DNA of 64,000 nucleotides from a phage. Location of the stretch: the NCBI GenBank assembly GCA_014686905.1, contig GCA_014686905.1_4093.1; one strand, 5' to 3'. The translations under genes were made by a program, and so were the position numbers. Positions 3,473-58,290 of this stretch are shown in pieces; the stretch's first letter is position 1; the number at the start of each line of letters is the position of its first letter. The notes below the pieces were generated by a model, which worked only from the letters and a program-made list of their open reading frames with translations, was not told the origin of the DNA and searched no databases.

Positions 3473-3814
3473 ATGCTTGAGTTTTTTAATTCAGATACAA
3501 TGCTTGGTATCACGCTAATTTACATGTTTGTATTTTTGTGTTATCATTCAATTGTAATTAGTCTGTGGTATTTTAAAAGGAAAATTGTTTTTAAATTGTA
3601 TTCGGATGATAATGTAGTCTTAGTTTTATATAGTATTATCCAAGGTGGGTTTATTTTATTTGGTGTGATGACATATGCGATTTACATGTTACAAATTGAT
3701 AATACACCACACATTACACAATATCTTGTGTTTTCAGGTCTAATCGTGTGGTTGTTGGTGTGTAGCATATACTTTATTATTAAAGCTCGTGATAGAATTA
3801 AAGGGGATTTCTAA
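3473..3814 (+). CDS. small membrane protein, tandem paralog 1 of 8
   Basis: About 3 hydrophobic helices; WYFKRKIVFKLY motif; clear paralog of 3814-4152; stop/start overlap. Confidence 0.6.
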   Translation: MLEFFNSDTMLGITLIYMFVFLCYHSIVISLWYFKRKIVFKLYSDDNVVLVLYSIIQGGFILFGVMTYAIYMLQIDNTPHITQYLVFSGLIVWLLVCSIYFIIKARDRIKGDF

Positions 3815-4152
3815 TGTTAACATTCTTTAAGTCAGATACAATGCTTAGTATTACTTTGATTTATCTTTTTGGTTTTTTCTTTTATCATGCACTGGTTGTA
3901 GTACTATGGTATTTTAAAAAGAAAATTGTTTTTAAACTGTATCCAGTGAGGAATTCATCACTAGTTCTTTACACAATTGTTCAAGGTTTGTTTGCAATTG
4001 TTGGTCTTATGGCACACTTAATTTATTGTGCTAATCCTCACTTGAACTCAATCTCACAATATATTGTATTCTTTGGGTTGTTCATTTGGTTAGGTGTATA
4101 CTTAATCCATCTCATTATTCATGGTAGAGATAAAATTCGCGGAGACTTCTAA
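3814..4152 (+). CDS. small membrane protein, tandem paralog 2 of 8
   Basis: Near-identical architecture to 3473-3814 (MLxFFxSDTML...WYFKKKIVFKLY...RDxIxGDF). Confidence 0.6.
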   Translation: MLTFFKSDTMLSITLIYLFGFFFYHALVVVLWYFKKKIVFKLYPVRNSSLVLYTIVQGLFAIVGLMAHLIYCANPHLNSISQYIVFFGLFIWLGVYLIHLIIHGRDKIRGDF

Positions 4153-4499
4153 TGTTTGAAGCTTATCTTGAGTTTTTAAGGAGTAGTCCAGTTGCACATT
4201 CACTTGCAGGGATTATTCTAACAACTTATGTATCATTTTGGGTAGTTATGTTTCTAGGATGGTATTTTAAACGACAATTCTATAAACGTAATGGTGAAGA
4301 TTTTATGAATTCTGTCATTAATCAATCGTTGTTTGCATCAACATTGATTGCATGTATTGTAGCAACACTCACAGGAAAGGTACTACCAGCTTTTTCCGCA
4401 GTTTACGGCACACTTGGGATGATATGTTTAACTTTTATATTGACCATTAAAATTTGTTGTGTTATGATTGAACTTCGAAATAAGATACCGGAGGAATGA
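4152..4499 (+). CDS. small membrane protein, tandem paralog 3 of 8
   Basis: Hydrophobic; WYFKRQFYKR motif; ATGA overlap with neighbour. Confidence 0.55.
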   Translation: MFEAYLEFLRSSPVAHSLAGIILTTYVSFWVVMFLGWYFKRQFYKRNGEDFMNSVINQSLFASTLIACIVATLTGKVLPAFSAVYGTLGMICLTFILTIKICCVMIELRNKIPEE

Positions 4500-4834
4500 T
4501 GGAGTACTTTATTGATTTACTGCCGTGGTATATGAAAGTTAGTACCATGTACTATATTATTAGTGCTGGATTCTACTTTCTGATGTGGTTCTTTAAACGA
4601 CCAATTTCAGTATTCATCGCTGATAACATGCTGCAATTAAAATTACACGCATGGTTTGGTCTGGCGATGATTATGCCTATTATTCACTACTCAATGATTA
4701 GTAGAGGTTTCCGTTCTAATGGTGAACCAATTGTATTAGTATTCTATTGGGGTTCAACTATTGCATATGTAAGTTTGTTGTTGTTCCCAGTCGTTCATAA
4801 GTTACGTGCTAAAGTTCCTGATGCGAGGTACTAA
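4496..4834 (+). CDS. small membrane protein, tandem paralog 4 of 8
   Basis: Hydrophobic; WFFKRP motif; overlaps neighbours. Confidence 0.55.
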   Translation: MMEYFIDLLPWYMKVSTMYYIISAGFYFLMWFFKRPISVFIADNMLQLKLHAWFGLAMIMPIIHYSMISRGFRSNGEPIVLVFYWGSTIAYVSLLLFPVVHKLRAKVPDARY

Positions 4835-5148
4835 TGGATATAGTAACATTGATTTACACGTTGTATTCATTCTATTTCATTATGTGTTGGGTTGGATTTT
4901 TATTTGTACTCAAGATGTTTGATTATGTTGAAAAACAGATAAAAGAATTTTGTATTCCTTTTATCGGTTCAACCATTATTAGTGTTTCTTGTGTGTATTT
5001 TTTGGTTTTTGATCCACCAGATAACACTGCAATGATTGACTTGATGTTACTACCAACAACTGTTACTTTTTTATGTAGTCTGATGCCGCCGATTAGCCGT
5101 GGACTAACAGAATTTAGACGCAATCAAAAGCGTAAACGAGGGATGTAA
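4834..5148 (+). CDS. small membrane protein, tandem paralog 5 of 8
   Basis: Hydrophobic helices; same size class; abutting neighbours. Confidence 0.5.
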   Translation: MDIVTLIYTLYSFYFIMCWVGFLFVLKMFDYVEKQIKEFCIPFIGSTIISVSCVYFLVFDPPDNTAMIDLMLLPTTVTFLCSLMPPISRGLTEFRRNQKRKRGM

Positions 5149-5516
5149 TGGAAATTGCTCTTATTATCTTAACTGCTATGTTGTTTATTAGTACTGTGGT
5201 TATAATTGGTAAATTCTTTTGTGTATCATTTTTAGAAACGGTATACGATGAAATTGCTGATGATTATGAACTACAAGCCGGATTTTTCATTACGTATTGG
5301 CTTAGTTTATTTTGTCTAGTCATTGCTTGGATTTTACATATCTTTAAATGGGGTATGGTAGACGGTGATCCTATTATGGCAATTATTGTTCTAGTGTTTG
5401 GTATCCTTGGTGGTGCAGTGCATAATCTAATGGTTATCTGGCAAACTGTTCAATATGTTTTGGTTCCCTATTTCGAAAAGATGCACAGTACAATTAAAAA
5501 ACGTAAACGAGGTTAG
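5148..5516 (+). CDS. small membrane protein, tandem paralog 6 of 8
   Basis: Hydrophobic helices; basic C-terminus KKRKRG like neighbour. Confidence 0.5.
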   Translation: MEIALIILTAMLFISTVVIIGKFFCVSFLETVYDEIADDYELQAGFFITYWLSLFCLVIAWILHIFKWGMVDGDPIMAIIVLVFGILGGAVHNLMVIWQTVQYVLVPYFEKMHSTIKKRKRG

Positions 5517-5517
5517 T

Positions 5518-5880
5518 ATGAACGGGATAGAATTATCTTTCGTTGGTCAATTACTAGTAATGGCGTATACATTTATCTTCTCACTGAATGCATTCGTGTG
5601 CATTGGGAAGTACTTCCATAAGCGACCATTATCAAATATATATGATGTAATCCAAAAGAGATATAGTCCAGCATATACTGTGTTGGGTACAGTATTCAAT
5701 TTTGGTTTTATTGTATTAATAATTGGACTGTTCACATCCTCTTTGAATACAATAACCTTCGGTCTTATGATATGTTCATTGGTATTAGCCGTAATTATAT
5801 GTTGTTTAGTACTGCACCTTGTGGTACTATTGTATATAAAGATCTCTGAAATCCACCAACGTTTGGGTATGAGGAAATAA
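5518..5880 (+). CDS. small membrane protein, tandem paralog 7 of 8
   Basis: Start moved to ATG at 5518 (MNGIELSF) just after previous stop; hydrophobic. Confidence 0.5.
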   Translation: MNGIELSFVGQLLVMAYTFIFSLNAFVCIGKYFHKRPLSNIYDVIQKRYSPAYTVLGTVFNFGFIVLIIGLFTSSLNTITFGLMICSLVLAVIICCLVLHLVVLLYIKISEIHQRLGMRK

Positions 5881-5881
5881 T

Positions 5882-6253
5882 ATGAGTTACCGTGAGATAT
5901 TTTCCATTATTTCAATTATTATGTTCAGTACTGGAACACTGGTATGGTTATTATACTTCTTCTGTATTAATCCAGTGTATAATATGTTATGTAATATTAA
6001 ATCAAGTGCCGGATATATCACTTTTATGGTCTTTATGGGATATTATTGTCTAAGCATTTTAGGTGTTGTTTTGGTTGTTATATTTGATGTGGGACCAAAT
6101 AGTGATGGTATGGAAATACATGAATTAATAACCATGTTTGGATGTATGATACCAACAGCACTACTGTTTGTAGCTACTGGTAGTGGATTGATAAAATTAT
6201 ATAATTATTTAAAATCCATTCATAATTCCATTCATAATAAGCGTATGTCATAA
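5882..6253 (+). CDS. small membrane protein, tandem paralog 8 of 8
   Basis: Hydrophobic helices; followed by inverted repeat CCAGTACT...AGTACTGG. Confidence 0.5.
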   Translation: MSYREIFSIISIIMFSTGTLVWLLYFFCINPVYNMLCNIKSSAGYITFMVFMGYYCLSILGVVLVVIFDVGPNSDGMEIHELITMFGCMIPTALLFVATGSGLIKLYNYLKSIHNSIHNKRMS

Positions 6254-6294: not shown

Positions 6295-6957
6295 ATGATG
6301 AAAACAAAATTAGGTTTGTTTTATAAAAATTATTTCGTTAAACAGCGTAAATTTATAAAAAAATATTTCTCTGGTGAGAAGTCTAGTCCTATAATTTTTA
6401 AAAGACCAAGTTATAATACTTACTTAGCTGGTGCTAAACAGTCTAAGAAATTTATTACTCTTTTAAATAAAAACAAAATTAAAGCTTCTTATGTTGAAAC
6501 GAGAAGAAACTCATCAATAACTCCTGGTGATTTTATTGAGTACGGATGTTTCAATATTAAGTACAATGATAATACATACTTTATGGATATTGATTGTAAT
6601 ACATCCAATCTTTTTAACATTGTAGTAAATCCATTAAAACAATATAATGTTTATGGTGATTCTATTATCAAATTAATCAAAAACAAAGATAGCTTTGATT
6701 TTGAAATAAATGTTTTAGATGATAATTTTGACGAAGTACCAGTAAACCCTGAAATCTGTGATATTTTAAACAGTTTAAAAGGTAGTACCTACAATATATC
6801 ATCTGATTTAATGTTTCAGTACTCATTAATCCATAAAGATATTGAAAAGTATATTGAATGCTCCAAAATTTTGAATTATCTTTACGATGAATTTAAAAAG
6901 AGTTCTAAAATAACTGCATACACTTTGTACAATATTCCTAAAATGGTGAATCTTTGA
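6295..6957 (+). CDS. hypothetical lysine-rich protein
   Basis: ORF with SD AAGGAG upstream; converges on the minus-strand array. Confidence 0.55.
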   Translation: MMKTKLGLFYKNYFVKQRKFIKKYFSGEKSSPIIFKRPSYNTYLAGAKQSKKFITLLNKNKIKASYVETRRNSSITPGDFIEYGCFNIKYNDNTYFMDIDCNTSNLFNIVVNPLKQYNVYGDSIIKLIKNKDSFDFEINVLDDNFDEVPVNPEICDILNSLKGSTYNISSDLMFQYSLIHKDIEKYIECSKILNYLYDEFKKSSKITAYTLYNIPKMVNL

Positions 6958-8090
6958 CAAATACAGTACTGGCAACTCCACCGTCTGTAATATATTGTCC
7001 AGTACTGTAAATTTGTATACCATCGGTTAAGTAAGTTCTGTATAAAGTTGCTGTAACATATACGTTATTCATATTCATCTCTATTGGTAGTACACATTTG
7101 GTATAGGCCGACACATCTGTTTGTGTACCTATACCCAATTGACCTGCGTTATCGCCTGTGTTATAACCAGTTGCGTAAACACCTAATGAAGTTATAATAT
7201 GATTAGAAAAATATGAATAACCCACACTGCTTCTTATTATATCACCTGGTGCTTGTGTTGTTTGTCTTAACGAAATATATGTTTGTGATGTAGAACCATT
7301 TGCTAACTGACCAAAGTACTGTCCACCACCATGATATGCAAATAATTTATTAGTACTATTATTACTTGCTATAGCAAAAGCGAAGTAACTTGAGTTTGTT
7401 GTATAATCTTTCACCGTATAGGTATTAGTTATTTGAGAACATAACGTGTACTTTGAATATAACGTCATGTCGGTTGTACCTACGCCTGATATTGCACCAG
7501 TATAATACAATCTCCCATCGGTTCCAATAAATCCTTGCATAAGAAAATTTGCCAGTATTTTGGATGGTGTTACTCCAGTAGGTACTGTTCCTTGTACAAA
7601 TGATGAAAGTGAATCGGTACTTCTACCATTTCCCAGTTGTCCATAACTACCATAACCAGTATTCCATATCGTGTTGTCTGTACATAATACGCTTAATGCA
7701 CCTGCACTAACTGCAATTTGTTTTATTGTTTTTCCTAGGGCTGTTATTCTATCAAACACTATCTTTGCAGAAGCCCACGTAGTAGACTTATCAGTTGATA
7801 AACCCAATGATGCACCATTCCCAGCGTACCACATCGTATTATCTTTCTTTTTTATTAAAGTTGACTCATACCCGCACCCATATATCTTCTACGTTTGTAT
7901 TGCATAAAACCCATTGGGTCTGTGTTATAATATTACCTATACCCATTTGCCCAAACTCTTGAGAGCCTCTACTGTATAGTGTCCCGTCTGACATAAGGGC
8001 AAAAACTGTCGTATCAGATGAAGATATTTTGGTAACAGTAGGGGGTAGGTTCTTTTTTGATGATGTGATAATTCTTCCAAAGGGTAGCAT
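6938..8090 (-). pseudogene. RCC1-like repeat paralog (MLPFGRI N-tag), interrupted by frameshift near 7866-7888
   Basis: N-terminal piece (MLPFGRI..., stop 7866-7868) and C-terminal piece (open from 7888) are in different frames and together match the length of intact paralogs; G-rich junction with a nearby A-run. Confidence 0.5.
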
Positions 8091-8162
8091 TGTATCCTCC
8101 AAATGTAAATCGTTATTATATTTAGGACAAAAAAATGCCAGTACAAGGCACTGGCATAAAAT

Positions 8163-9332
8163 CTAAGCAGAAGGCATATCCTTCATTTTAATAAATGAAA
8201 ATTGTGTACCAGTATTTGTGGTTTGATCAGTAAAATATGAATTACTACCAGCCCAGTACAATTCATTATTAACTATACAATATATAACAGAACTCGAACT
8301 CTGTGAATACACACGACTTATATTTGATGGTTCTACTCCAGTACTGAACTGAACCGAACCCAACTGTGAACTTGGTATCACATCAGTTGGTCTACCTAAA
8401 CCATTAACACCAGCCCCACCACCACATGTATATACCCCAGTACTATCAGTTGATATATTAACATAACCATTTCCGGCATTTTCAAATAGTATTTCACTGG
8501 GAACAACACCAAATCCAGTAAGATCTATTTTCCTGAATGTAGTGTAAACAGTAGAACCACCAACACCTCTTCCACCATAATCATTAGAACCAGCCATATA
8601 GATACTATATCCAGAACTTCCTAAACATAATAACTGTACGTTGTCATATAATATTTGCATAGATATAACGTTATCAGGAATACTCAATACCGTAAAAGTA
8701 GTTAAAGAAGAACTTCCAATATTACTACCAACCGATGTTCCACATCTGTAGTACTTACCGCCTTTTATATAATGGAACGATGAACCGCCTAACTTATGTG
8801 CTCCTATTGTACTTACCCCAGTATCTATAAGAATGGGAGATACAACTTTGTTATTAACACCTAACTCAGATCTACTGTTCATACCGAACCCATATAAACG
8901 ACCATCTAACATCAATATTAGTGTACTACCGGAAGTACCCGCTGACGTAAATTCTATATTCTTTATTTGCGACACGTCAATACCTACAAATAATGAAGTT
9001 ACTTCAGTCCAGTTAACATATGAACCACTAGCCCCAAAATATCCACCCATGTATAGACCTGCACAATATAATTTATTATCAACAGTCTTTATTAATGTAC
9101 CGGATACACACGCCCAAAAATCATCAACTTCATAGGGTACATGTACCCAACCACCTAATACATCACTAGCATCCCCTGTACCTAATTTATAGTTCGAACC
9201 AGAACCACGCATGTACATATTCCCTGTACTATAAAGTAATCCGACATGTAATTGACTACCATCCAATTTCTTTATTTCAGGAAGAGTTGGTTTAATATTT
9301 CCGTACTTTAACATTCTTCCAAAAGGTAACAT
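8163..9332 (-). CDS. RCC1-like repeat protein with conserved N-terminal tag MLPFGRMLKYGN
   Basis: Starts MLPFGRMLKYGNI after SD GGAGG; Gly/Ser/Thr/Asn-rich body with repeated GxxxxGQLG-type motifs. Confidence 0.7.
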   Translation of the reverse strand: MLPFGRMLKYGNIKPTLPEIKKLDGSQLHVGLLYSTGNMYMRGSGSNYKLGTGDASDVLGGWVHVPYEVDDFWACVSGTLIKTVDNKLYCAGLYMGGYFGASGSYVNWTEVTSLFVGIDVSQIKNIEFTSAGTSGSTLILMLDGRLYGFGMNSRSELGVNNKVVSPILIDTGVSTIGAHKLGGSSFHYIKGGKYYRCGTSVGSNIGSSSLTTFTVLSIPDNVISMQILYDNVQLLCLGSSGYSIYMAGSNDYGGRGVGGSTVYTTFRKIDLTGFGVVPSEILFENAGNGYVNISTDSTGVYTCGGGAGVNGLGRPTDVIPSSQLGSVQFSTGVEPSNISRVYSQSSSSVIYCIVNNELYWAGSNSYFTDQTTNTGTQFSFIKMKDMPSA

Positions 9333-9344
9333 AATTTTCTCCTT

Positions 9345-19905: not shown

Positions 19906-21054
19906 TCACTGCAAAAATGACATATCGACTTCGGTATAATTAAGAACGTTCTGTCCAGCAATACCTCCCATTACTACAATTGAAGCCCCACAATAATATA
20001 ACTTCGAAGTGTCAGTAAGTATAAGTGAACCAGATGGGGTGCGTACCAAATTACACGAAGTATTAAACGAAGTATATGAAGGGGTATAAGAGTACTGATT
20101 AATATTATTACCAACACCTAATTGACCAGACGAGTTGCTTCCAGATGCATAAAGTACTTCATCACCTTTAACTATATGTGACGCCATGTTACCAACACAA
20201 GTATATAAACTATAAACTCCTGAACTCAATAATGTTGGAGTTTTGTATTGTATATCTGTAGATGAAGAAGTACCACCTGTGCCAAATTCGTTCCCGTATT
20301 GTGCACCGAACTGTTTACCACATGCGTACAAATTATTATCTGATTTAATAAAAAATGTACTCTGATAACTTACATCAAAATCTATAACATCCGAAGCAAT
20401 CATCGTCACCCCAGTAATAGAAGTTTGATTACCTGTACCTAACTGATAGTAATAGTTAAAACCACAACCCCATAAAGTATTATCTTCTTTTAGGTATATG
20501 TTACCAACTGCCTTTTTAACCGAAGTTATAGTATCTACCCTTTTGAATGTGTTAAAAGAATTAATGTTTGTACCATCACCAAATGATGATAGGTTAGAGT
20601 TATTGTTAGCTCCACAACAATACAATGTACCATCGTTTGTTATCAAATTTACCTTCATATCATTAAAACTACTCATGTATTTTATATCAGAAACATTAAT
20701 ACCACCTGATGTTATCCACGTAGTACATTCCGTCCACAAAGTTTTTCTATCAGTTACACCAGTGAATGCCTTCGTGTTACCAGTGATAAAAACTTTTCCA
20801 GTACCTTTCTCTTCATACAATTGACAATCACTACTGTTATTTTCCAATAGAACTCGTTTAACATTCTCCGCACTAAGAATAAATTTACTCGACGAAACAC
20901 CTGTTCCAGTACCCCAATTCGTCGCAGAAGATGCATACAACTTATCAGTATAAGTATCATGAAGATACATGGAATCACTGGAATATATTTTAAAACGTCC
21001 ATCATCACCAGGGGCAATATTCCCGTACTTAATCATTCTAACAAAAGGTAACAT
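19906..21054 (-). CDS. RCC1-like repeat protein with N-terminal tag MLPFVRMIKYGN
   Basis: Start set to ATG at 21054; near-duplicate of 17503-18651. Confidence 0.7.
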   Translation of the reverse strand: MLPFVRMIKYGNIAPGDDGRFKIYSSDSMYLHDTYTDKLYASSATNWGTGTGVSSSKFILSAENVKRVLLENNSSDCQLYEEKGTGKVFITGNTKAFTGVTDRKTLWTECTTWITSGGINVSDIKYMSSFNDMKVNLITNDGTLYCCGANNNSNLSSFGDGTNINSFNTFKRVDTITSVKKAVGNIYLKEDNTLWGCGFNYYYQLGTGNQTSITGVTMIASDVIDFDVSYQSTFFIKSDNNLYACGKQFGAQYGNEFGTGGTSSSTDIQYKTPTLLSSGVYSLYTCVGNMASHIVKGDEVLYASGSNSSGQLGVGNNINQYSYTPSYTSFNTSCNLVRTPSGSLILTDTSKLYYCGASIVVMGGIAGQNVLNYTEVDMSFLQ

Positions 21055-21156
21055 ATTTCCCTCCTTATTCATTATATCATATTTACCCCATAAAGAAAAC
21101 CCTTGACATCCTTTCAGTACTGGTGTACTATAGAAGGAATATAAGGAGAACTACAC

Positions 21157-21384
21157 ATGACAAATACTCTTAAGCACTACCTCAATACTCTAAATGAACT
21201 AGAGTACGGGGAATTTCTCGCGGATAGTTCGTGGCTAATTGAGCTAAAAAATTATAATAGTCCAGGATGCACCCTTATGATGAACAATGCAATTGATACC
21301 CTCATTGTGAGTATTTTACACAGCAACATCTGCGGGGATAGCAATAAACAATTATCAAAAATCTTAGTACTGCTATCTATATGA
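21157..21384 (+). CDS. small protein, first gene of the family-1 array (divergent)
   Basis: SD AAGGAG upstream; TTGACA/-10-like promoter in the divergent intergenic region. Confidence 0.5.
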   Translation: MTNTLKHYLNTLNELEYGEFLADSSWLIELKNYNSPGCTLMMNNAIDTLIVSILHSNICGDSNKQLSKILVLLSI

Positions 21385-21584
21385 ACATTGAACAGTACTA
21401 CATCGATGCACTACCAACAAAAGGTCTACGAGAAAGCCTACTGTATACACAAAATACTTTTATACACTACAAACGTTGTCCTAAACTCCTGAACTCGTAC
21501 AGGAGTAATATCATAAGAAATGCTTTACAAGGGGCAGAAAGTATGCAATACTATTATATCCTTGCCCTTTTAATCGAGTACTAA
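21381..21584 (+). CDS. family-1 small paralog (C-terminal aromatic tail, LIYRY-like)
   Basis: ATGA overlap with neighbour; ends ...YYYILALLIEY. Confidence 0.5.
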   Translation: MNIEQYYIDALPTKGLRESLLYTQNTFIHYKRCPKLLNSYRSNIIRNALQGAESMQYYYILALLIEY

Positions 21585-21585
21585 T

Positions 21586-21795
21586 ATGAATACTGAACAT
21601 AAAGAATTCTACACCAAATACCTTAGCAACGAAGAACAATTGTTTCTAAGGAGTGTATCACCTGTAAGTACCAATACTCACTTCGGTAGAGATTGCTTTA
21701 ATAATTGTATACGTAGTACTCTAGAAGCAATCGAATGCAATAACAAAAATATTATGTACTCAGGTTTAATAGGACTAATCTACTTCTATGAATAA
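21586..21795 (+). CDS. family-1 small paralog
   Basis: MNTEHKEFYTKYLS... N-terminus, GLIGLIYFYE tail. Confidence 0.5.
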   Translation: MNTEHKEFYTKYLSNEEQLFLRSVSPVSTNTHFGRDCFNNCIRSTLEAIECNNKNIMYSGLIGLIYFYE

Positions 21796-21982
21796 TCATA
21801 AAGATTTCTATGGTAGTAAACTACACAAGCAAGACCAGCTATCATTCTCTTTAGCACCACCTATGAGAAAGGATAATCTATATTACAATTACGATTTCAG
21901 GATGGCGACACGTTATGCAATAGAACATCAGTTCCCTGAAACTAAGTACCGCTCTATCCTGAACCTCATCTTTAAGTTCTAA
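21788..21982 (+). CDS. family-1 small paralog
   Basis: MNNHKDFY start; tail ILNLIFKF. Confidence 0.5.
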   Translation: MNNHKDFYGSKLHKQDQLSFSLAPPMRKDNLYYNYDFRMATRYAIEHQFPETKYRSILNLIFKF

Positions 21983-22034
21983 AAGGTGCAACAGGAACCG
22001 AGTACTTTAATATAGTAAGGCTAATTACATTATA

Positions 22035-22220
22035 ATGAATCATATAAGCTACTACTACCAACAACTATCCGACAGAGACAAGTACAGTCACAACTCCCAT
22101 GTGTGGTACTACAAACGCGGCAGTATAAGAGACAAACAACATTACTTCTGTATTTCTATTAAAGAAGCACTGACAACTAAGTACACGTACCGAGCAGTAC
22201 TGAAACTTATTGAAATGTAA
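22035..22220 (+). CDS. family-1 small paralog
   Basis: Tail ...YTYRAVLKLIEM. Confidence 0.45.
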   Translation: MNHISYYYQQLSDRDKYSHNSHVWYYKRGSIRDKQHYFCISIKEALTTKYTYRAVLKLIEM

Positions 22221-22228
22221 GGAAGAAA

Positions 22229-22411
22229 ATGAACATAGAATTCTATTTAACTAAACTACAACACGCCGAAAGATTCAACTTCAATAAGTTCAATATTTTC
22301 TACAATTGCGGGAACAAAAAAGATAAACACACCTTCCTATATGTCGTCACAAGAGATGCACAAAACGAAAAGTACACATACAGAGAAGTAATGAAACTAA
22401 TCGCTATTTAA
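22229..22411 (+). CDS. family-1 small paralog
   Basis: Tail ...YTYREVMKLIAI; SD GGAAG. Confidence 0.45.
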   Translation: MNIEFYLTKLQHAERFNFNKFNIFYNCGNKKDKHTFLYVVTRDAQNEKYTYREVMKLIAI

Positions 22412-22419
22412 GGAATACT

Positions 22420-22599
22420 ATGCAACAATTCTATAGAGAACGTATAACCATAAAAGACCGTTTCATGTACGACACCTTCGTGAAGTACTACAAACTAGGA
22501 ACAAAAAGTACTAAAAATATTAATCTCAATAGCTGCATTTATGCTGTACTAACACAAGATAATCCCTACAGGGAAATCCTCGCCCTGGCATCTATATAA
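22420..22599 (+). CDS. family-1 small paralog (59 aa, below track cutoff)
   Basis: Hand-translated MQQFYRERITIKDRF...PYREILALASI; SD AAGGAA upstream. Confidence 0.4.
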   Translation: MQQFYRERITIKDRFMYDTFVKYYKLGTKSTKNINLNSCIYAVLTQDNPYREILALASI

Positions 22600-22609
22600 A
22601 GGAAACCAA

Positions 22610-23281
22610 ATGAAACTTAATGCACACAGCAAACAATACCTTAAGCACTTTAAGTACCTCAATAGTATTCAGGCAGAATCAGTTACATCTGCATATACGT
22701 ATCACCCGAATGTACTAAAGAAACGAAATAAAAAGGAAAAATCCAGTACAAATGGAGTTAACGTATCAAAGAACCTTGAATTGTACATGAAGAAAAATAA
22801 TATAGCTGTTCATTATATGAATATCTATAATACTGATTTAAAAGTATTGAGTACTAATACGAGCACAAAGGTACTAAAGAACGCATCCTTCATCATCAAT
22901 ATGCAGTTGGATAATACCCCGTGCACTTTAATGCTATACTTCGGGAATACATACTTCTTCGGGAATTGTAACACCTCCCACGATGTCAATACAGCACAAT
23001 TCCAAATGGGTGGCATATACAATATGGGTTCAAAAAAAGTACACGAGAATATGCACTTCTGGCAAGCACAACGTACAGAAGAAACTAAATCAATTGTAGA
23101 TTTCCTCAAAGAACTAGAACACAAAGAACTACAGGAAGAAGAACTATTCATGTACAGTACTGTAATCGATAATCCAGTACTCTATAAAAACGCGTACAAT
23201 CTGACAAAACATGTACAGGAAATTATCAGTACTAATAAGAAAATGCATCACCTCATTACGTATATTACAAACTATGTATAA
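22610..23281 (+). CDS. family-3-like protein (EEELFMYSTVIDNP motif) embedded in the family-1 array
   Basis: 223-aa ORF with SD AAGGAAAC; motif resembles the EEYFQxSLVxD signature of the 51.7-64 kb array. Confidence 0.55.
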   Translation: MKLNAHSKQYLKHFKYLNSIQAESVTSAYTYHPNVLKKRNKKEKSSTNGVNVSKNLELYMKKNNIAVHYMNIYNTDLKVLSTNTSTKVLKNASFIINMQLDNTPCTLMLYFGNTYFFGNCNTSHDVNTAQFQMGGIYNMGSKKVHENMHFWQAQRTEETKSIVDFLKELEHKELQEEELFMYSTVIDNPVLYKNAYNLTKHVQEIISTNKKMHHLITYITNYV

Positions 23282-23456
23282 AGAATACTACCAAGAACAT
23301 CTCCCAATGCATCTCCAACACCTTGTACCCAAAGAACCAATAGGAATAAAAGATCACGCAAAAATAATGTTCCAACAATGTACTAAGTACACGCTCATAT
23401 ACGATGATAATCCATATATGCTGTACTACGTAGTAATGCTAACATTCAGGTACTAA
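23274..23456 (+). CDS. family-1 small paralog
   Basis: Start moved to MYKEYYQEHLP; tail YYVVMLTFRY. Confidence 0.5.
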   Translation: MYKEYYQEHLPMHLQHLVPKEPIGIKDHAKIMFQQCTKYTLIYDDNPYMLYYVVMLTFRY

Positions 23457-23457
23457 T

Positions 23458-23637
23458 ATGCACAAACATAAAGAATTCTACCTCTCGTACCTTAATTCCG
23501 ATATAGTAACATCCAATACCTTCAGTACTAAAATTATCTATAATGAATTAATAAAAGAATGTATTAAAGGTGCTATTAACCCTAAAGATACGTATGACTT
23601 GTACTATGCAGTACTAACCCTTGTTTTCACGAAATAA
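23458..23637 (+). CDS. family-1 small paralog (59 aa)
   Basis: Hand-translated MHKHKEFYLSYL...LYYAVLTLVFTK. Confidence 0.45.
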   Translation: MHKHKEFYLSYLNSDIVTSNTFSTKIIYNELIKECIKGAINPKDTYDLYYAVLTLVFTK

Positions 23638-23645
23638 CACATAAT

Positions 23646-23837
23646 ATGAATAACCACAAAGAATACTACATAGAGAAACTCCCAATGTATCTCCAACACC
23701 TTGTACCAAACGTTGCATTGGGTATAGAAAAAAACTACGAAAAAGACTACTTCATTCAGTGCACTAAATCCTCGATATATATTGACGACTATAATCGAGT
23801 ACTGTATCACATCCTTTTACTAATATATAGGTACTAA
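23646..23837 (+). CDS. family-1 small paralog
   Basis: MNNHKEYYIEKLPMYLQHLVP...LLLIYRY. Confidence 0.5.
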   Translation: MNNHKEYYIEKLPMYLQHLVPNVALGIEKNYEKDYFIQCTKSSIYIDDYNRVLYHILLLIYRY

Positions 23838-23838
23838 T

Positions 23839-24021
23839 ATGCACAAAGAATACTACACACAATTTCTCCCCAGCATTTTTGAACACTACGCCAGATATAA
23901 AGTCCCTCTGGATAACGATTTGGCAGTACTGGGATTCAATAACTGCATAGAACGAAGTATAGAAAATAGTAGTAGTTATGACCAGCTATATAACACTATC
24001 CTACTTATATTCAGGTACTAA
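23839..24021 (+). CDS. family-1 small paralog
   Basis: MHKEYYTQFLP...ILLIFRY. Confidence 0.5.
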   Translation: MHKEYYTQFLPSIFEHYARYKVPLDNDLAVLGFNNCIERSIENSSSYDQLYNTILLIFRY

Positions 24022-24022
24022 C

Positions 24023-24211
24023 ATGCATAAAGAATACTACACAAAATATTTCCCAATGTACCTCAGAACTAATCTATTAGATAAACCTCGCGGTATCAAT
24101 GCACAAAATGATAAAGTGTATTTTACTATGTGCACTAAAGCATGTATACTAGATTTTGACAGCTACCATCGAGTACTGTATCATACCCTGTACCTAGCTT
24201 TCGTATTCTAA
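24023..24211 (+). CDS. family-1 small paralog
   Basis: Start moved to MHKEYYTKYFP; tail LYLAFVF. Confidence 0.5.
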   Translation: MHKEYYTKYFPMYLRTNLLDKPRGINAQNDKVYFTMCTKACILDFDSYHRVLYHTLYLAFVF

Positions 24212-24220
24212 GAGAACAAT

Positions 24221-24406
24221 ATGCATAAAGAATTCTACTTAAGCCACCTCGATCTAAACTCCCAAATGCTTATACCACAAATCCCAATAGATATCAAGGA
24301 TAAGAAAAATACCGAACAATTCATTTACCATACACAGTGTGCGATCACCCCAAATTACATTCCATATGAATTGTACTACATTCTCGCCCTAATATATAGG
24401 TACTAA
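24221..24406 (+). CDS. family-1 small paralog
   Basis: MHKEFYLSHL...ILALIYRY. Confidence 0.5.
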   Translation: MHKEFYLSHLDLNSQMLIPQIPIDIKDKKNTEQFIYHTQCAITPNYIPYELYYILALIYRY

Positions 24407-24407
24407 T

Positions 24408-24593
24408 ATGCATAGAGAATACTACACACAATTTGTTAAAGGGAACTACAAACATGCCGTACCCAGAACCCCTTTAAATTTTCATGACCCAAGTACTATA
24501 TTCTTGTTTAATGACGCAATACGTACAGTACTCAATACTAAAGATGAAGATGTGCAGTACGTATTCTTACTATTACTTATATACAGACACTAA
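24408..24593 (+). CDS. family-1 small paralog
   Basis: MHREYYTQFV...LLLLIYRH. Confidence 0.5.
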   Translation: MHREYYTQFVKGNYKHAVPRTPLNFHDPSTIFLFNDAIRTVLNTKDEDVQYVFLLLLIYRH

Positions 24594-24598
24594 CTAAT

Positions 24599-24808
24599 AT
24601 GAATAAAGAACATAAAGAATTCTACTCCAAATACATAAGCCCCTCAGAACAAATGTTTCTAAGGACTACACCACCTTTAAGTACTAATACATATTTCGGC
24701 AGAGTATGCTACAATAATTGTATTCAAATGACTTTAAACGCAAACGAAGATGATAACAGTACTAACCTGTACTCAGGTATCATAGGTATACTATTCCTGT
24801 ATGAATAA
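24599..24808 (+). CDS. family-1 small paralog
   Basis: MNKEHKEFYSKYIS...GILFLYE; near-duplicate of 21586-21795. Confidence 0.5.
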   Translation: MNKEHKEFYSKYISPSEQMFLRTTPPLSTNTYFGRVCYNNCIQMTLNANEDDNSTNLYSGIIGILFLYE

Positions 24809-24989
24809 TTACAAAGACTTCTATTTGAATACACTACCTACTGTACTTTCTCTAAGTGCTCAATGTAAAATCCCGCTGGATAATGCTTACGCCAGATATA
24901 GCTATTCCATAACTGTTAATCGATGTATAGAGAATCATTGCAGTACTAACCAGTACTATAACATAATCCTACTTATATTCAGGTACTAA
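24801..24989 (+). CDS. family-1 small paralog
   Basis: MNNYKDFY...IILLIFRY. Confidence 0.5.
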   Translation: MNNYKDFYLNTLPTVLSLSAQCKIPLDNAYARYSYSITVNRCIENHCSTNQYYNIILLIFRY

Positions 24990-24990
24990 T

Positions 24991-25173
24991 ATGAATAAAG
25001 AACATAAAGAATTCTATATACGAAAACTAACATTCGTCCCCGTAAGAATATATAAAGAATGCGACCCAAGATTATACCTATGGCACTTCAATGAGTGCAT
25101 AAAAGATTCTATATACCCTAAGAACTACAAAGAACAATTGTGCTCAGTACTAACACTAGTACTATCATATTAA
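24991..25173 (+). CDS. family-1 small paralog
   Basis: MNKEHKEFYIRKL...LTLVLSY. Confidence 0.5.
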   Translation: MNKEHKEFYIRKLTFVPVRIYKECDPRLYLWHFNECIKDSIYPKNYKEQLCSVLTLVLSY

Positions 25174-25188
25174 TTAATAGAGAATACT

Positions 25189-25380
25189 ATGTATAAAAAC
25201 TTCTATATAAGTAAACTAAAAGAAAATGAACAAGTATGGATTAGATCTATAATTCCACTGGCATTTAATAGATATGCATTTAACAGATGTACCGAGATTG
25301 CTATAGACCCTTATAATATTAAAGAGAATGTACAGTATAATCAGTACTACTATATCTTAATGCTTATATATAGGAAGTAA
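25189..25380 (+). CDS. family-1 small paralog
   Basis: MYKNFYISKL...ILMLIYRK. Confidence 0.5.
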   Translation: MYKNFYISKLKENEQVWIRSIIPLAFNRYAFNRCTEIAIDPYNIKENVQYNQYYYILMLIYRK

Positions 25381-26457
25381 TTAAACACAAGTAGACAGGG
25401 GAAGCTCCTAGTGAACAACCTTTATGTACAGGCGAATTGTTAAAATTCAGCCTGGACAAATGCGATCACTAGGATTCTCCCCAGGCTAAACCCCGTAATC
25501 ATAGGTAGTCATAAGTAATCATATATAAACATTTATATGAGCACCGTAGAATCACAGAATGATTATATATGATTCAGTACTGATTAGTATAGACAAGAAT
25601 GCTCAAGAATGCACGGGAAGGATTCAGTACTGATATGCCACTAAGTAGGCAGAGGAAGTCTGCCGTACTTTTTAGTTTCCAAGCTCCTTTTCCATTTTTC
25701 AAATTACATCAAATGTAATCAAAAGTAATCACGCAATGATTAGTACTGAATTATTACTTTCACCTTAATTTCAATTACCCCTTTACCCTTCGGGGTAAAA
25801 TTCAATTACCCCTTGAGGCTCCAGCAAAAAGTTGGTTAGTACTCCATCCTAAATCTCGATCCTAAAAATTTTGGAGTACCTATGAAATAAAAGTTGGATC
25901 TTCGAAAGTTGAAATTTACGTTGGGACGTTTATGATTTGTGGGATATAATGATGTTTGTAGTCGGGTAGTTCTCAAGAATATCAGTACTGAATAATGAAA
26001 GAAAGCTATTGACATTATGATTCAGTACTGTATAATGTTCTACATAGAGAGATGAGTTGCTGCGAACAATTCATTTACTCTATCTCCTGTCGTGAGACAG
26101 TACAGAAAAGATAGTTCCTCCTGTGGTGGTACATCTTTTTGAACCTCATATGAAAATCGTAATAACAGTACTGATATTAACAGAATGGTGTCAGTACTGA
26201 TTTTAATCTAAAGCATTATGCCACCAGCTTGTGCTGGTGGATTCCCTCTAACAGTATTCAGTACTACATGATGGTCTTCATCCTCCTAGGGTAACATAGT
26301 GAGGGCTATGATGGCAGTACTGAATACTCCCTTTCAAAAGATAGATCTATGGTATAGTACTGACGGATTTTGGGTGTAGTTACCCTGGATGGATTTTGGG
26401 CGTAGATATGTCTAGCCCTCCAGAAGTCTGGAAGTAAAGATGGCTATCCATCTAGAC

Positions 26458-26520
26458 GGCTAAACGGCTAGATGGCTGGATGGCTAGACGTTTGGACGGC
26501 TAAACGGCTAGATGGTTACA
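26458..26520. repeat. short tandem repeat unit ACGGCTAAACGGCTAGATGG (x2, with related GGCTGGATGGCTAGACG between)
   Basis: Direct reading of 26440-26545. Confidence 0.55.
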
Positions 26521-27161
26521 CGTCTGGAAGTATAGACGGCTAAATCAAAATTTTATTTTGTTTTTCCAATAGTTCCCCTACCGCGTGGGGATAGTTTCCC
26601 CGCAGTATCTGGCGTTAGATTTTTCTGAATCTGGAATCATTATCTTATAAACTGGGGGCAATGTCAACGACCTGGACGGATATTTTTAAAAATTTTTTCA
26701 GTACTGAATTTTGGGCGTAACTATGCACCCGGTGGGCTTGAGTCTTTCTCGACTTGATGGAACTATTATACAGTACTGGAAAAATAAAGCAATACCCTGG
26801 ATGAAAAAAGTTTTAATTAATTTGCTTGCCATCCTGGGCCGGACTATGGTACTATATTTCAGTACTGAGAAAGTGCGTTTACCTGCTAGGGTGCGGGAGT
26901 GTATCCTTTTTTTATATCTTGAATTTTGGACGGATCTTCCCACCCCCTGGGGTATCCGCTTTCTCGCGTCTATGTAGTAATTATACGCTTTTTCAGGATC
27001 AAGTCAATACCTAAAAACAAAATAATTGAAAATAATTTAACGCGTTTAAACGGCCCGTAACGCCCTGGAATGATTAGAATGGTGCAAATGTATAGCTTAG
27101 GTGTATTAATGCGTTAGAATGCGTCTGAGGCCGTTTTATGGGGTGTAGTAGTGATTTGGTT

Positions 27162-27252
27162 GATTCAGTACTGAATAATAGTACTCCTATATAGAAAGAT
27201 AGTTCCCCTGGATTGATTCAGTACTGAATAATAGTACTCCTATATAGAAAGA
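27162..27252. repeat. 38-bp direct repeat GATTCAGTACTGAATAATAGTACTCCTATATAGAAAGA (x2, 15-bp spacer)
   Basis: Identical copies at 27162-27199 and 27215-27252. Confidence 0.7.
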
Positions 27253-27283
27253 AAACTATTTTAAAAGTATTTGTAGAAAGTAC

Positions 27284-27311
27284 TTGCACCGTACTGATAA
27301 AAGCGTATAAT
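27284..27311 (+). promoter_or_regulatory. sigma70-like early-type promoter (TTGCAC, 16-bp spacer, TATAAT), representative of about 35 similar promoters in 27.3-45 kb
   Basis: TACTTGCA(A/C)...GCGTATAATGTTTTACATC recurs before most small genes in this region. Confidence 0.6.
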
Positions 27312-27325
27312 GTTTTACATCGAGA

Positions 27326-27342
27326 GCGGGAACACTTCCCGC
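27326..27342 (+). promoter_or_regulatory. conserved 5' leader stem-loop (GCGGGAA-CAC-TTCCCGC), representative of about 25 instances
   Basis: Stem-loop sits a few nt after the predicted start site (...TTTTACATC) and 10-20 nt before the SD; stem sequence varies between copies with compensatory changes. Confidence 0.55.
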
Positions 27343-27366
27343 TACACTTTAAGAGAGATTAATACG

Positions 27367-27729
27367 ATGGCAACTCAAATCACCAAAATTATTGCTAACC
27401 TGGTTAACTTCCGCGACGAGATGAAAGATCTTCCGGCGGCGACGGTTAAAACTCACATTGACGCATACCGCGAACTGATTAAAATGCTGCCGCTTAAGCG
27501 TGAACAATACGCCGCTACCGTGATGCTTGATGCGATGATCCATAAGATGATCGCCAGTGATTTGACGATGGTTTATCAGTATATGGGCGAAAATTTCGCG
27601 GTGTGTAGTAAGCCAGTACCAGGGATGGCAACAACTGAGGAATTGCACGGCTTAAACTTAAAACAAGATGCATGGGATAATATGCCTCGTTTCCTGGTAT
27701 GGGCTGACAGTGGCAAAATTTACAAATAA
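27367..27729 (+). CDS. hypothetical early protein
   Basis: Start moved to MATQITKI after SD AGAGAG (track ORF began inside promoter/leader). Confidence 0.6.
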   Translation: MATQITKIIANLVNFRDEMKDLPAATVKTHIDAYRELIKMLPLKREQYAATVMLDAMIHKMIASDLTMVYQYMGENFAVCSKPVPGMATTEELHGLNLKQDAWDNMPRFLVWADSGKIYK

Positions 27730-45166: not shown

Positions 45167-45320
45167 AAATAAAAGGGATTGGACTATGGCAAAATGCGTA
45201 GGGGGCTAAAGGGCGGGTAACCTTAGCGACTTCGATAAAGGGGTATTACGAATAAAATGTTATTGACTTTTTATATGAATCGTATAAAATATGATCGATA
45301 ATAATTTTAAGGGAGTCCCT

Positions 45321-45518
45321 ATGCGTATTTTAACTAAAGAACAGCACCACGAAAGACTTATCAATAACATGGCTATGATAATGTATAAGTCCCATGACCG
45401 TGGTATTGCCTATAAGCGTGAATTAATTATGGCACTATTCATTGGAACTAACTTTCAGGAAAGGTATGTCAACGATTGGATTTGGTATTTAATTGAAGAT
45501 ATAACGAGTAAACTATGA
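45321..45518 (+). CDS. family-2 small paralog (LGTNYQ motif), first of array
   Basis: Start set to MRILTKEQ after SD AAGGGAG; promoter-like TTGACT...TATAAAAT upstream; motif FIGTNFQERYV. Confidence 0.55.
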   Translation: MRILTKEQHHERLINNMAMIMYKSHDRGIAYKRELIMALFIGTNFQERYVNDWIWYLIEDITSKL

Positions 45519-45715
45519 AAATGCGTATTTTAAATAAAGAAGAATATCAATCACTGTTACGTAAAAACTTCACAAAGATTTATAATACAGACACACACGT
45601 AGAACGAATGGAGTTATACCTTTTGATTACATTGGGAACAAACTATCAGGGTAGATGGGTGTGGCAATATATGGATACATTGAAAAATAAAATATTGTCC
45701 ACGAGGAAACAATGA
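45515..45715 (+). CDS. family-2 small paralog
   Basis: ATGA overlap; motif LGTNYQGRWV. Confidence 0.55.
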   Translation: MKMRILNKEEYQSLLRKNFTKIYNTDTHVERMELYLLITLGTNYQGRWVWQYMDTLKNKILSTRKQ

Positions 45716-45921
45716 AAACTATAACACGAACCCAATCATACGGTCTTATCTTGAAATACATGGACTTAATGGTGGATATCAGCAAAGACCTGCCTAAAAC
45801 TGAAATTGAAGTTGCAAGAGCAGAGATCCGCATGTTGGCTGTACTGAACACAAACCATCAGGAAGATTATGTTGAAGAATGGATTCGATTTTTAATTCAA
45901 GATATAAAGAGTAAATTATGA
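45712..45921 (+). CDS. family-2 small paralog
   Basis: ATGA overlap; motif LNTNHQEDYV. Confidence 0.55.
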   Translation: MKTITRTQSYGLILKYMDLMVDISKDLPKTEIEVARAEIRMLAVLNTNHQEDYVEEWIRFLIQDIKSKL

Positions 45922-46133
45922 TTATTATAGAAAACTCATATCAATATACTGAACGCATCGCTGCCAGACAACTTGAAATCCTCATAATATACGAAGAGAC
46001 TTCTGATTTAAACTTAGCCGAGGTATTGGAAAATGAAATACTTTTGGGTGCATTCTTGGGAACAGACTATCAGGAGTATTATGAGGAAAAGTATTTGTCA
46101 TCTCTTGAGAAATACATCAGGAGTAAATTATGA
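45918..46133 (+). CDS. family-2 small paralog
   Basis: ATGA overlap; motif LGTDYQEYY. Confidence 0.55.
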   Translation: MIIIENSYQYTERIAARQLEILIIYEETSDLNLAEVLENEILLGAFLGTDYQEYYEEKYLSSLEKYIRSKL

Positions 46134-46342
46134 TTATATTAACACCTGAAGAATATAAGAAACGTTTTAATTCTGTCCAGACTGAAATATTACTTATATA
46201 CCTTTCAAATGCAGACCTTAACTTATCAAGGGCAATGGAGAAGGATTTACTTATGGGTGCATTTTTGGATACAGACTTTCAGGTGTATTATGTAGGGGAA
46301 TACTTAATTGCACTCCAGAATTACATTAGGAGTAAACTATGA
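46130..46342 (+). CDS. family-2 small paralog
   Basis: ATGA overlap; motif LDTDFQVYYV. Confidence 0.55.
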   Translation: MIILTPEEYKKRFNSVQTEILLIYLSNADLNLSRAMEKDLLMGAFLDTDFQVYYVGEYLIALQNYIRSKL

Positions 46343-46566
46343 AACATTTAAGTAATATTGAGAAGATGAGAATTATCATTGATGCATTAAACAAATACGA
46401 TACCCTTTTACAAATAAAAGGTTTAACTCGATTGGAACACAAGATAAACACCACCGATGTACGCATGTTGGCTGTACTGGGGACGAACTTTCAGGAAGAG
46501 TATGTTGTTGCACACATAGTTGCACTCACTAATTACATAATGGACAAATGTAATGAACATCATTAA
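46339..46566 (+). CDS. family-2 small paralog
   Basis: ATGA overlap; motif LGTNFQEEYV. Confidence 0.55.
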   Translation: MKHLSNIEKMRIIIDALNKYDTLLQIKGLTRLEHKINTTDVRMLAVLGTNFQEEYVVAHIVALTNYIMDKCNEHH

Positions 46567-46777
46567 TAACTTTGAATACGAGGCCCGTGCTAAGAGTGCC
46601 AGAAAAAAAGAGAACACCATTTACTTCACTATGATGTACTTACAATGGACTGAAATTGAAGAAAAGGTTGCTGAAGTTTGGATGTTGGAATTCATGGGGA
46701 CGCAGTATCAGAATAGGTTTGCGGGTGAGTATATCAATGTTCTTATGAAACAAATAGAAAGAAAGGAAAAGAACTAA
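46553..46777 (+). CDS. family-2 small paralog
   Basis: Motif MGTQYQNRF. Confidence 0.55.
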   Translation: MNIINNFEYEARAKSARKKENTIYFTMMYLQWTEIEEKVAEVWMLEFMGTQYQNRFAGEYINVLMKQIERKEKN

Positions 46778-46935
46778 TGGTTTTCATTAACATATCTGAC
46801 CAACTCGATACTAAACTAGAAGTCGAGCAGAGTGAGGGATGGATGCTGTACTTTCTTGGAACTTCTCATCAGAATTTTTATATCCATGAACACATAGTTG
46901 CACTCAAGAATTACATTATGGACAAATGCAAATGA
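46777..46935 (+). CDS. family-2 small paralog (52 aa, below track cutoff)
   Basis: Hand-translated; motif FLGTSHQNFY. Confidence 0.45.
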   Translation: MVFINISDQLDTKLEVEQSEGWMLYFLGTSHQNFYIHEHIVALKNYIMDKCK

Positions 46936-48745: not shown

Positions 48746-48747
48746 TA

Positions 48748-52381: not shown

Positions 52382-52440
52382 CTTGACAGTACTTTTCATT
52401 ACTGATATAGTACACTAACGTTAATCATAGGGTAAAAATT

Positions 52441-58086: not shown

Positions 58087-58087
58087 T

Positions 58088-58282: not shown

Positions 58283-58290
58283 GGTAAAAA

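Follow-up and report, generated by a model that had tools for sequence, protein, structure and literature searches.

The 223-residue product of ORF223, whose gene sits in the middle of a tandem array of mini-genes (family 1), is probably an old and strongly diverged member of an uncharacterised superfamily of FQ-motif proteins, resident to the right of an array of RCC1-like genes and not recently moved there from the FQ-motif array (family 3) at 51.7-64 kb. A reading made from the sequence only had recognised the family-3 signature in this 223-aa ORF as well as the family-1 identity of both of its neighbours, and had taken the combination to imply that the two paralog arrays had exchanged material by recombination or transposition. 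Both observations were borne out (core HMM E 4.7e-5 for ORF223; family-1 HMM E 1.1e-14 and 5.1e-21 for the neighbours), but the implied exchange is unsupported: the locus is fixed, the base composition is local, DNA searches found no tie to the family-3 array, and the divergent phage EJP2 holds a homolog at this locus. What is new is that a known hypothetical gene gains a reasonably well supported family assignment and that its evolutionary reading is corrected; it is not a new kind of system, and ORF223 is an ordinary diverged paralog. The papers covered by a literature search contain no description of these paralog families, and public records list ORF223 and its relatives only as hypothetical proteins.

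The window, that is, the whole stretch of 64,000 nucleotides that was analysed, is low in GC (31-40 %) and gave no matches in Rfam and tRNA scans. Megablast of its 21-26 kb part matched 37 phage records, all of them from jumbo phages of Escherichia or Salmonella that belong to the genus Asteriusvirus; 121Q, G17, Sharanji, and phAPEC6 are closest, with 121Q nearest. The gene order and the features discussed below are compiled in Table 1.

Table 1. Features of the window in order of position.
Feature	Position	Strand	Remarks
Membrane-protein paralog array	3.5-6.3 kb	+	genes of ~112 aa
ORF220	6295-6957	+	220 aa (P0028-P0034); second 'orphan' FQ-motif gene, motif SSDLMFQYSLIHKD; other flank of the RCC1-like array
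RCC1-like gene array	6.9-21.1 kb	-	
Sigma-70-like promoter match, TTGACA-17-TACTAT	21103-21131	+	consensus scan only; in the gap from which the RCC1-like and family-1 arrays diverge
Family-1 array	21157-25380	+	18 tightly packed genes of ~60 aa, broken by ORF223
Upstream family-1 sub-array	21157-22599	+	7 genes, 59-75 aa; HMM, NJ tree
Shine-Dalgarno-like AGGA	22600-22603	+	6 nt before the ORF223 ATG; abuts the stop codon (22597-22599) of the preceding family-1 gene
ORF223	22610-23281	+	223 aa, ATG start; ORF listing
ORF223 C-terminal module	23030-23269	+	residues 141-220; homologous to the family-3 C-terminal region (hhalign); three helices predicted
ORF223 signature motif, LQEEELFMYSTVIDNPVL	23129-23182	+	residues 174-191; counterpart of family-3 EEYFQxSLVxD
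Downstream family-1 sub-array	23274-25380	+	11 genes, 59-69 aa, '...LIYRY' subtype; stop of ORF223 overlapped by the first ATG
Terminator-like GC hairpin followed by a T run	25648-25664	+	consensus scan only; downstream of the last family-1 gene
Stretch without credible ORFs			1.9 kb, after the family-1 array; ORF-free region conserved
Small genes			~18 kb, after the ORF-free stretch; many with a promoter-like cassette upstream
Family-2 array	45.3-53.4 kb		genes of ~70 aa
Family-3 (FQ-motif) array	51667-63999	+	21 members in the window; runs past its end, to ~189 kb in 121Q
Family-3 member nearest to ORF223 in reciprocal searches	59083-59706	+	121Q gp360; probable start 59155; HMM and hhalign

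ORF223, its orthologs and its long relatives

ORF223 corresponds to gp256 of 121Q and gp544c of phAPEC6, is annotated as a hypothetical protein, and matches phrog_29152, a PHROG without annotated function, over its full length (E 3.6e-152, residues 1-223 on profile positions 1-223), with no cross-match of this PHROG comparison to the family-3 PHROGs at E<=0.01. Its homologs in the protein database form 22 clusters of 66-88 % identity with intact frames, all from the Asteriusvirus group, and tblastn placed the gene in 37 phage records, once in each; the matches cover 65-100 % of the query in 36 of the 37, the exception being a weak match in EJP2. The signature lies close to the C-terminus, where residues 174-193 read LQEEELFMYSTVIDNPVLYK and include the motif EEELFMYSTVIDNP, EEELFMYSTVI being residues 176-186 of 223. 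Across the 22 orthologs the C-terminal module is nearly invariant (F180, M181, Y182, S183, T184, V185, and I186 entirely so) and the middle of the protein is most variable; dN/dS against the JP4 ortholog is 0.45. The orthologs of the Salmonella phages SD-2_S15 and SD-15_S21 carry in-frame deletions, which points either to a dispensable middle of ORF223 or to imperfect assemblies.

Mass spectrometry identified 62 virion proteins in phAPEC6, and the ortholog gp544c is not one of them (PMC7247149); that list holds no protein numbered between gp347 and gp549, a range that contains gp544c and its neighbours (PMC7247149). Several of the neighbouring RCC1-like proteins are present in the same virion proteome (PMC7247149). 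ORF223 is a real, conserved, and non-structural phage gene. A packaged internal protein processed at an L-x-E site was also considered and is disfavoured, the phAPEC6 virion proteome being without any protein from these arrays.

The weak tblastn match led to EJP2, a divergent Asteriusvirus. An HMM of ORF223 finds two homologs there: EJP02_496 with 48.3 bits (E 1.7e-14) over HMM positions 1-212, that is, near full length, and EJP02_511 with 32.4 bits (E 1.3e-9) over positions 34-220. The motifs of both are canonical (DEKMFQYSTMI and EEEIFQQSLVL, respectively). The former closes a run of three tandem FQ-motif genes of ~206-225 aa to the left of the RCC1-like array; the latter stands alone on the right flank, between that array and the conserved ORF-free region, and is thereby the positional equivalent of ORF223.

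A similar gene, ORF220, borders the left side of the RCC1-like array in the window itself. Pairwise BLASTP between ORF223 and ORF220 is not significant (E 0.62) and their kinship becomes visible only with EJP2-enriched profiles; comparison of the long profile with the ORF220 orthologs plus EJP02_494 by hhalign reached 95.8 % (P 8e-9) over 144 collinear columns. Judged by these alignments, ORF220 is a distant paralog of ORF223, and both belong with EJP02_494, EJP02_496, and EJP02_511 to a 'long' subfamily (~205-230 aa), whose genes lie on either flank of the RCC1-like array. Its members start with a basic N-terminus, continue with a beta-rich middle, and end in a C-terminal module of three helices with the motif (E/D)(E/D)xhF(Q/M)xS(T/L)(V/I). 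The long relatives thus resemble ORF223 in length (205-230 aa), in architecture, and in adjoining the RCC1-like array, with EJP02_496 and EJP02_511 collinear almost end to end, but their identity is only ~20-27 %, and ORF223 alone sits amid family-1 mini-genes.

Position of ORF223 in the family-1 array

The two genes bordering ORF223 (22420-22599 and 23274-23456) are those matched by the family-1 HMM with the E values given above. Throughout the block of 21157-25380, genes are separated by at most a few tens of nucleotides, with a 10-nt gap before ORF223. According to the NJ tree, the three mini-genes nearest upstream of ORF223 constitute a subtype of their own that is absent downstream. Related family-1 pairs occur on both sides (21586/21788 with 24599/24801), and a two-gene segment, 21580-21824, is 76 % identical at the nucleotide level to 24593-24837 across ORF223. 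The upstream copies number 7 in the window and in 121Q, and 10 in JP4. The family-1 array has been shaped by tandem as well as segmental duplication, with copy number varying beside ORF223.

T4-type and other jumbo phages hold tandem paralog families of small genes in early or hypervariable regions, and jumbo phages often have paralog families that include diverged outliers. The small-gene families of large virulent phages are like the arrays described here in being packed on the same strand, of unknown function, subject to duplication, and variable in copy number between close relatives, but there is no function-defining homology and the likeness is one of analogy only. For CBB, 22 paralogous ORFs have been noted (PMC5259590).

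In the family-1 arrays of six further genomes that were compared (121Q, phAPEC6, JP4, JNE01, and two Salmonella phages), ORF223 is found at the corresponding place, namely after an orthologous 'MQ(Q/T)FY...' mini-gene and before more mini-genes, and this includes JNE01 at 40 % identity. A tblastn search with concatenated family-1 sequences matched 36 Asteriusvirus records, JNE01 and Turkey5 among them, and gave no match in EJP2 even at E<=10; the family-1 HMM likewise found none in 39 kb of EJP2.

The base composition of ORF223 (GC skew -0.11, GC3 skew -0.14, AT skew +0.24) resembles that of its present neighbourhood, the family-1 array having a GC skew of -0.19 +/- 0.10 and a GC3 skew of -0.38 +/- 0.18. 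In the family-3 array, which lies 28 kb away, the corresponding values are +0.17 +/- 0.08 and +0.12 +/- 0.13, so that ORF223 is 3.5 SD from that array in skew. When 22.3-23.6 kb was compared with the window by sensitive blastn, only family-1 junction repeats were returned, and the sole match in the family-3 array was a stretch of 26 nt that encodes the motif (E 0.069). Flanking repeats that might mediate an exchange had been proposed as something to look for; neither blastn nor repeat searches found any that are common to the ORF223 locus and the 51.7-64 kb array.

The simplest reading of this locus is a resident gene on both sides of which mini-gene sub-arrays expand and contract. Because EJP2 is the only genome without family 1, a loss of family 1 in EJP2 is as parsimonious as its gain in the other lineage, and neither polarity calls for a transfer from the 51.7-64 kb array. 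For genome evolution, this would mean that a foreign-looking gene in a tandem array need not have moved: the evidence fits an array situated around a resident gene better than a gene that entered the array, although EJP2 may have lost the array.

Among the alternatives, the one that fares best reverses this order of events. The common ancestor may already have possessed the family-1 array and received a long-subfamily gene within it by a single insertion, with EJP2 losing family 1 afterwards. The equal parsimony of loss and gain, with EJP2 as the sole genome without family 1, is compatible with such an ancient insertion, and so are the related family-1 pairs that flank ORF223. We nonetheless regard it as rather improbable: the nearest three upstream genes are of a subtype missing downstream, which better fits sub-arrays growing beside a pre-existing gene, and in EJP2 the gene occupies precisely this locus while the HMM detects no family-1 remnant.

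The originally suggested scenario, in which a family-3 gene moved from 51.7-64 kb into the family-1 array by recombination or transposition, is unlikely. ORF223 does bear a family-3 module amid unrelated mini-genes, and duplication and recombination shape both arrays. Its position, however, is fixed among the genomes with family 1 (36 with a tblastn match, the gene order having been compared in six genomes besides the window), its composition is equilibrated to the locus, neither DNA similarity nor flanking repeats were found to tie it to the family-3 array, and beyond the C-terminal module it resembles no array member. Moreover, a homolog holds the locus in EJP2 although no family-1 genes were detected there. 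Movement at a deeper level is conceivable in that the ORF223 profile scores the left-flank EJP02_496 above the positional equivalent EJP02_511; because of this ranking, a member of the long subfamily may have changed place in the distant past.

Homology with the family-3 array

The family-3 signature was defined as [DE][DE]x[YFLW]FQxS[LT][VI], with some 40-60 residues between it and the C-terminus and with Q or N accepted beside S in the membership test. The 21 members in the window are very heterogeneous (columns of the full-length alignment average 16 % identity), and only F and Q are invariant. Among 592 six-frame ORFs, a full-length family-3 HMM placed ORF223 first of the non-members, yet with just 7.9 bits (E 0.12). 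A core HMM, which extends from 14 residues before to ~45 after FQ and was built from 77 array members of the window, 121Q, and JNE01, assigned 20.1 bits to ORF223 (E 4.7e-5 among 1459 six-frame ORFs), with the first noise match at 10.6 bits; the JNE01 ortholog reached 14.5 bits and ORF220 17.7 bits (E 2.6e-4). None of 2000 residue shuffles of ORF223 attained its score, the maximum being 12.1 bits. When each genuine array member was scored against a profile from which it and all sequences of above 40 % identity to it had been removed, the members ranged from 11.3 to 47.9 bits, and ORF223 falls in the lower part of this range. It scores like a divergent family-3 member.

Profile-profile comparisons point in the same direction. 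With hhalign, the ORF223 orthologs matched the family-3 array of the window at 72.9 % (P 3.1e-5, 18 columns) and the orthologs of the 59.1-59.7 kb member (121Q gp360) at 65.4 % (P 5.9e-5) over 66 columns, which comprise ORF223 residues 141-220. Reversed and column-shuffled controls remained far lower (maxima of 23.3 and 12.8, as compared to 36.9 and 35.6 for the real alignments). Inclusion of the JNE01 and EJP2 homologs in the ORF223 profile raised these values to 91.3 % (P 9.5e-7) against the window array and to 80.9 % over 67 columns against the gp360 group; ORF220 compared with family 3 gave P 9.1e-5. In reciprocal searches, the best non-self matches of the ORF223-ortholog HMM were all family-3 array members, aligned at the motif, and the best of them, the gp360-type member of the window and its 121Q copy, reached E 0.0057-0.02, and 0.0008-0.0017 in a second search. 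These figures have to be read with the caveat that 18-67 columns are aligned and that the hhalign probabilities are 65-91 %, not >95 %. Even so, the resemblance between ORF223 and family 3 is, by all of these profile measures, due to homology and not to chance.

That the 223-aa protein should align with the members at 51.7-64 kb was the proposed check of the sequence-only reading, and motif similarity unsupported by full-length alignment was to count against it. The outcome is divided. No full-length alignment of ORF223 with any family-3 array member could be obtained, nothing is alike outside the C-terminal module, and pairwise BLAST against family 3 gave no match; the C-terminal 66-80 residues, on the other hand, are homologous, and the array members share only that region even among themselves. 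The family-3 array (121Q gp342 to ~gp408; PHROGs 30243, 13866, 31297, 9317, 19795, 12674, and others, all of unknown function) is thus like ORF223 in its C-terminal module with the acidic-aromatic F(Q/M)xS(T/L)(V/I) motif some 40-50 residues from the C-terminus, in a variable N-terminal part before this module, in the lack of any product detected in virions, and in being confined to this phage group. ORF223 differs from it in lying outside the array, in its unrelated N-terminal 140 residues, in base composition, in the replacement of Q by M, and in having its own PHROG.

A chance or convergent origin of the motif, according to which ORF223 would be unrelated to family 3 and merely have an acidic-aromatic peptide in common with it, could draw on the poor score of the full-length HMM, on the failure of pairwise BLAST, on a whole-array alignment of only 18-19 columns, and on the change from Q to M. 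The family-3 invariant Q is indeed M in ORF223 and in most of its orthologs, but it is present in the JNE01 and EJP2 homologs, so that distant homologs have the canonical FQ, and one JNE01 family-3 array member also reads FM. The motif of ORF223 is, furthermore, as far from the C-terminus as in family 3, the 66-67-column alignment with one subfamily reaches well past the motif whereas shuffled and reversed controls score far lower, and the core HMM places ORF223 in the range of true members with no shuffle matching it. Coincidence is accordingly a very unlikely explanation.

Least credible, to the point of being negligible, is a derivation of ORF223 from family 1 by fusion of a mini-gene to extra sequence, for which its tail (...LITYITNYV, superficially echoing ...LLLIYRY) and the overlap of its stop with the next mini-gene start might be cited, but against which ORF223 is absent from the top 32 matches of the family-1 HMM (all non-members E>0.05, as compared to 49-80 bits for 18 of 18 true members) and has EJP2 homologs in a genome without detectable family-1 genes; a fused family-1 gene as its C-terminus is ruled out at the sensitivity of that HMM.

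Beyond the Asteriusvirus genomes, the FQ core profile found only 59 clusters among 1.84 billion representatives in a whole-library search, which at that size is insensitive to ORF223 itself, and because of this small number the FQ family is to be called narrow.

The product and its proposed working

Sequence searches of Pfam, NCBIfam, and the PDB with ORF223, ORF220, and representatives of families 1, 2, and 3 returned no meaningful match; an NCBIfam SseB match is noise (18.8 bits against a cut-off of 155 bits). For ORF223, AF2 with an alignment of orthologs only yielded an unusable model (pLDDT 43.8) and with a broader alignment a weak one (pLDDT 54.5), in which only residues ~150-200 are confident (pLDDT 73-85). 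The latter model predicts a disordered basic N-terminus, a small beta-sheet, and three C-terminal helices (157-171, 176-183, and 189-208), the motif forming the short middle helix. Fold searches gave weak and generic matches only, and BPI/TULIP-like and other helix-on-sheet 'wrap' folds (BPI 1ewf, Mdm12 5yk7, SPLUNC, Takeout) may be the closest known ones.

No promoter-like cassette, as found before many genes at 27-44 kb, occurs within the family-1 block, and the sigma-70-like site in the divergent gap before it is a candidate promoter for the whole block of 21.1-25.4 kb. Judging from this arrangement, ORF223 is probably co-transcribed with the mini-genes. In phages of the 121Q/JNE01 type, in which the family-1 array lies on both sides of ORF223, the gene may be translated from a polycistronic and probably host-RNAP-driven transcript over 21.1-25.6 kb, presumably early and in translational coupling with the mini-genes. 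The C-terminal three-helix FQ module would then represent the constrained functional core, on which the whole superfamily would rely for folding or docking, and the subfamily-specific N-terminal two-thirds could confer on each paralog its own specificity, for example towards a host-takeover or anti-defence target. By analogy with small early genes that other phages carry in arrays, a role of ORF223 in host takeover or anti-defence is plausible.

Several dozen FQ members were seen per genome. A more far-reaching proposal, which we consider doubtful, is that the FQ module serves as a docking or targeting tag on several dozen proteins (~30 kb per genome) that would bind one host or phage hub or be recognised by one processing enzyme, the consensus E-E-x-Y-F-Q-x-S being reminiscent of an ExxYxQ|S protease site; the long genes by the RCC1-like array, including ORF223, would be the ancestral full-length forms, the family-3 array derived from them by domain shuffling, and the family-1 array a lineage-specific innovation beside ORF223.

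For annotation, the present assignment ties 121Q gp256 (phrog_29152) as well as ORF220, left of the RCC1-like array, to a large and uncharacterised FQ-motif superfamily and defines a long subfamily within it. About 83 % of Asteriusvirus genes are of unknown function (PMC7247149), and paralog arrays occupy tens of kilobases in these genomes. Because so many genes are without a function and the arrays span such a length, the conserved module of ~60-80 residues offers a practical handle for pull-downs and mutagenesis.

The family-1 array around ORF223

The ~60-aa family-1 mini-genes surrounding ORF223 (a 223-aa gene with a C-terminal FQ-motif module, corresponding to gp256 of phage 121Q) differ in copy number between phages immediately beside this gene (window 21157-25380), with seven family-1 genes upstream of it in both the window and 121Q as compared to ten in JP4 (L010 968-5759). 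Across ORF223, a segment comprising two genes (21580-21824) shares 76% DNA identity with 24593-24837. The family-1 array and ORF223 (21157-25380) furthermore display negative GC and GC3 skew although they are encoded on the + strand, unlike every other + strand gene block of the window, in which the skew is positive.

Two Salmonella phages, SD-2_S15 and SD-15_S21, carry ORF223 orthologs with in-frame internal deletions (see the table), and the C-terminal helices are retained in both. These deletions may indicate that loss of the middle region is tolerated or, alternatively, may stem from assembly collapse.

The ORF-free stretch near 26 kb and the repeated cassette

Within a 2.2-kb aligned block, the stretch at 25850-27300 shows ~80% DNA identity to the divergent Asteriusvirus EJP2, whereas protein identity between the adjoining ORF223 homologs of the two phages is only ~25%. 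Cumulative GC skew reaches its minimum (~26 kb) on this same stretch, for which Rfam returned no match. It may represent a constrained non-coding element, for example, an RNA, regulatory sequences, or an origin.

An intergenic cassette, which includes TTGCAC-17-TATAAT followed by a hairpin, precedes many of the small genes in the 27-44 kb interval of the window and recurs at no fewer than 15 sites in EJP2; the family-1, -2, and -3 arrays lack it.

Further FQ-motif genes and paralog arrays

The second orphan FQ-motif gene, to the left of the RCC1-like genes, is a distant paralog of ORF223 (alignment of 144 columns), and the corresponding region of EJP2 harbors three tandem FQ-motif genes (EJP02_494-496). 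The array of tandem paralogs at 3473-6253 has its counterpart in EJP2 (L008 431-2163), where it lies ahead of the long FQ genes. In the family-3 array of FQ-motif genes (51.7 kb to the window end), the consensus E-E-x-Y-F-Q-x-S (e. g., 52250-52280) shows a sequence resemblance to the TEV-type protease site E-x-x-Y-x-Q|(S/G). The family-2 array interleaves with the start of family 3, with family-2 members at 52978-53432 lying within the family-3 zone. Mass spectrometry (PMC7247149, Table 1) showed several phAPEC6 orthologs of the RCC1-like 'DNA condensation' proteins to be associated with the virion.

Features of the window and of related loci (window coordinates unless a locus is named)
Feature	Location	Strand	Remarks
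Eight tandem paralogs, ~104-141 aa	3473-6253		predicted multi-pass membrane proteins
Orphan FQ-motif gene, 220 aa	6295-6957	+	SSDLMFQYSLIHKD; left flank of RCC1-like array
RCC1-like gene array	6938-21072	-	about 12 genes
ORF-free stretch	25850-27300		no credible ORFs; compare L009 18482-20000 (EJP2)
Sigma-70-like site	26009-26036		12/12 match; inside ORF-free stretch
Intergenic repeat cassette, ~50-120 nt	27253-27375		17 further copies up to 44358
Family-2 array, ~70-aa genes	45288-53432		at least 30 members; HMM
ORF223 ortholog, SD-2_S15	L006 2501-2914		in-frame deletion, residues ~94-179
ORF223 ortholog, SD-15_S21	L007 2501-3073		in-frame deletion, residues ~123-155
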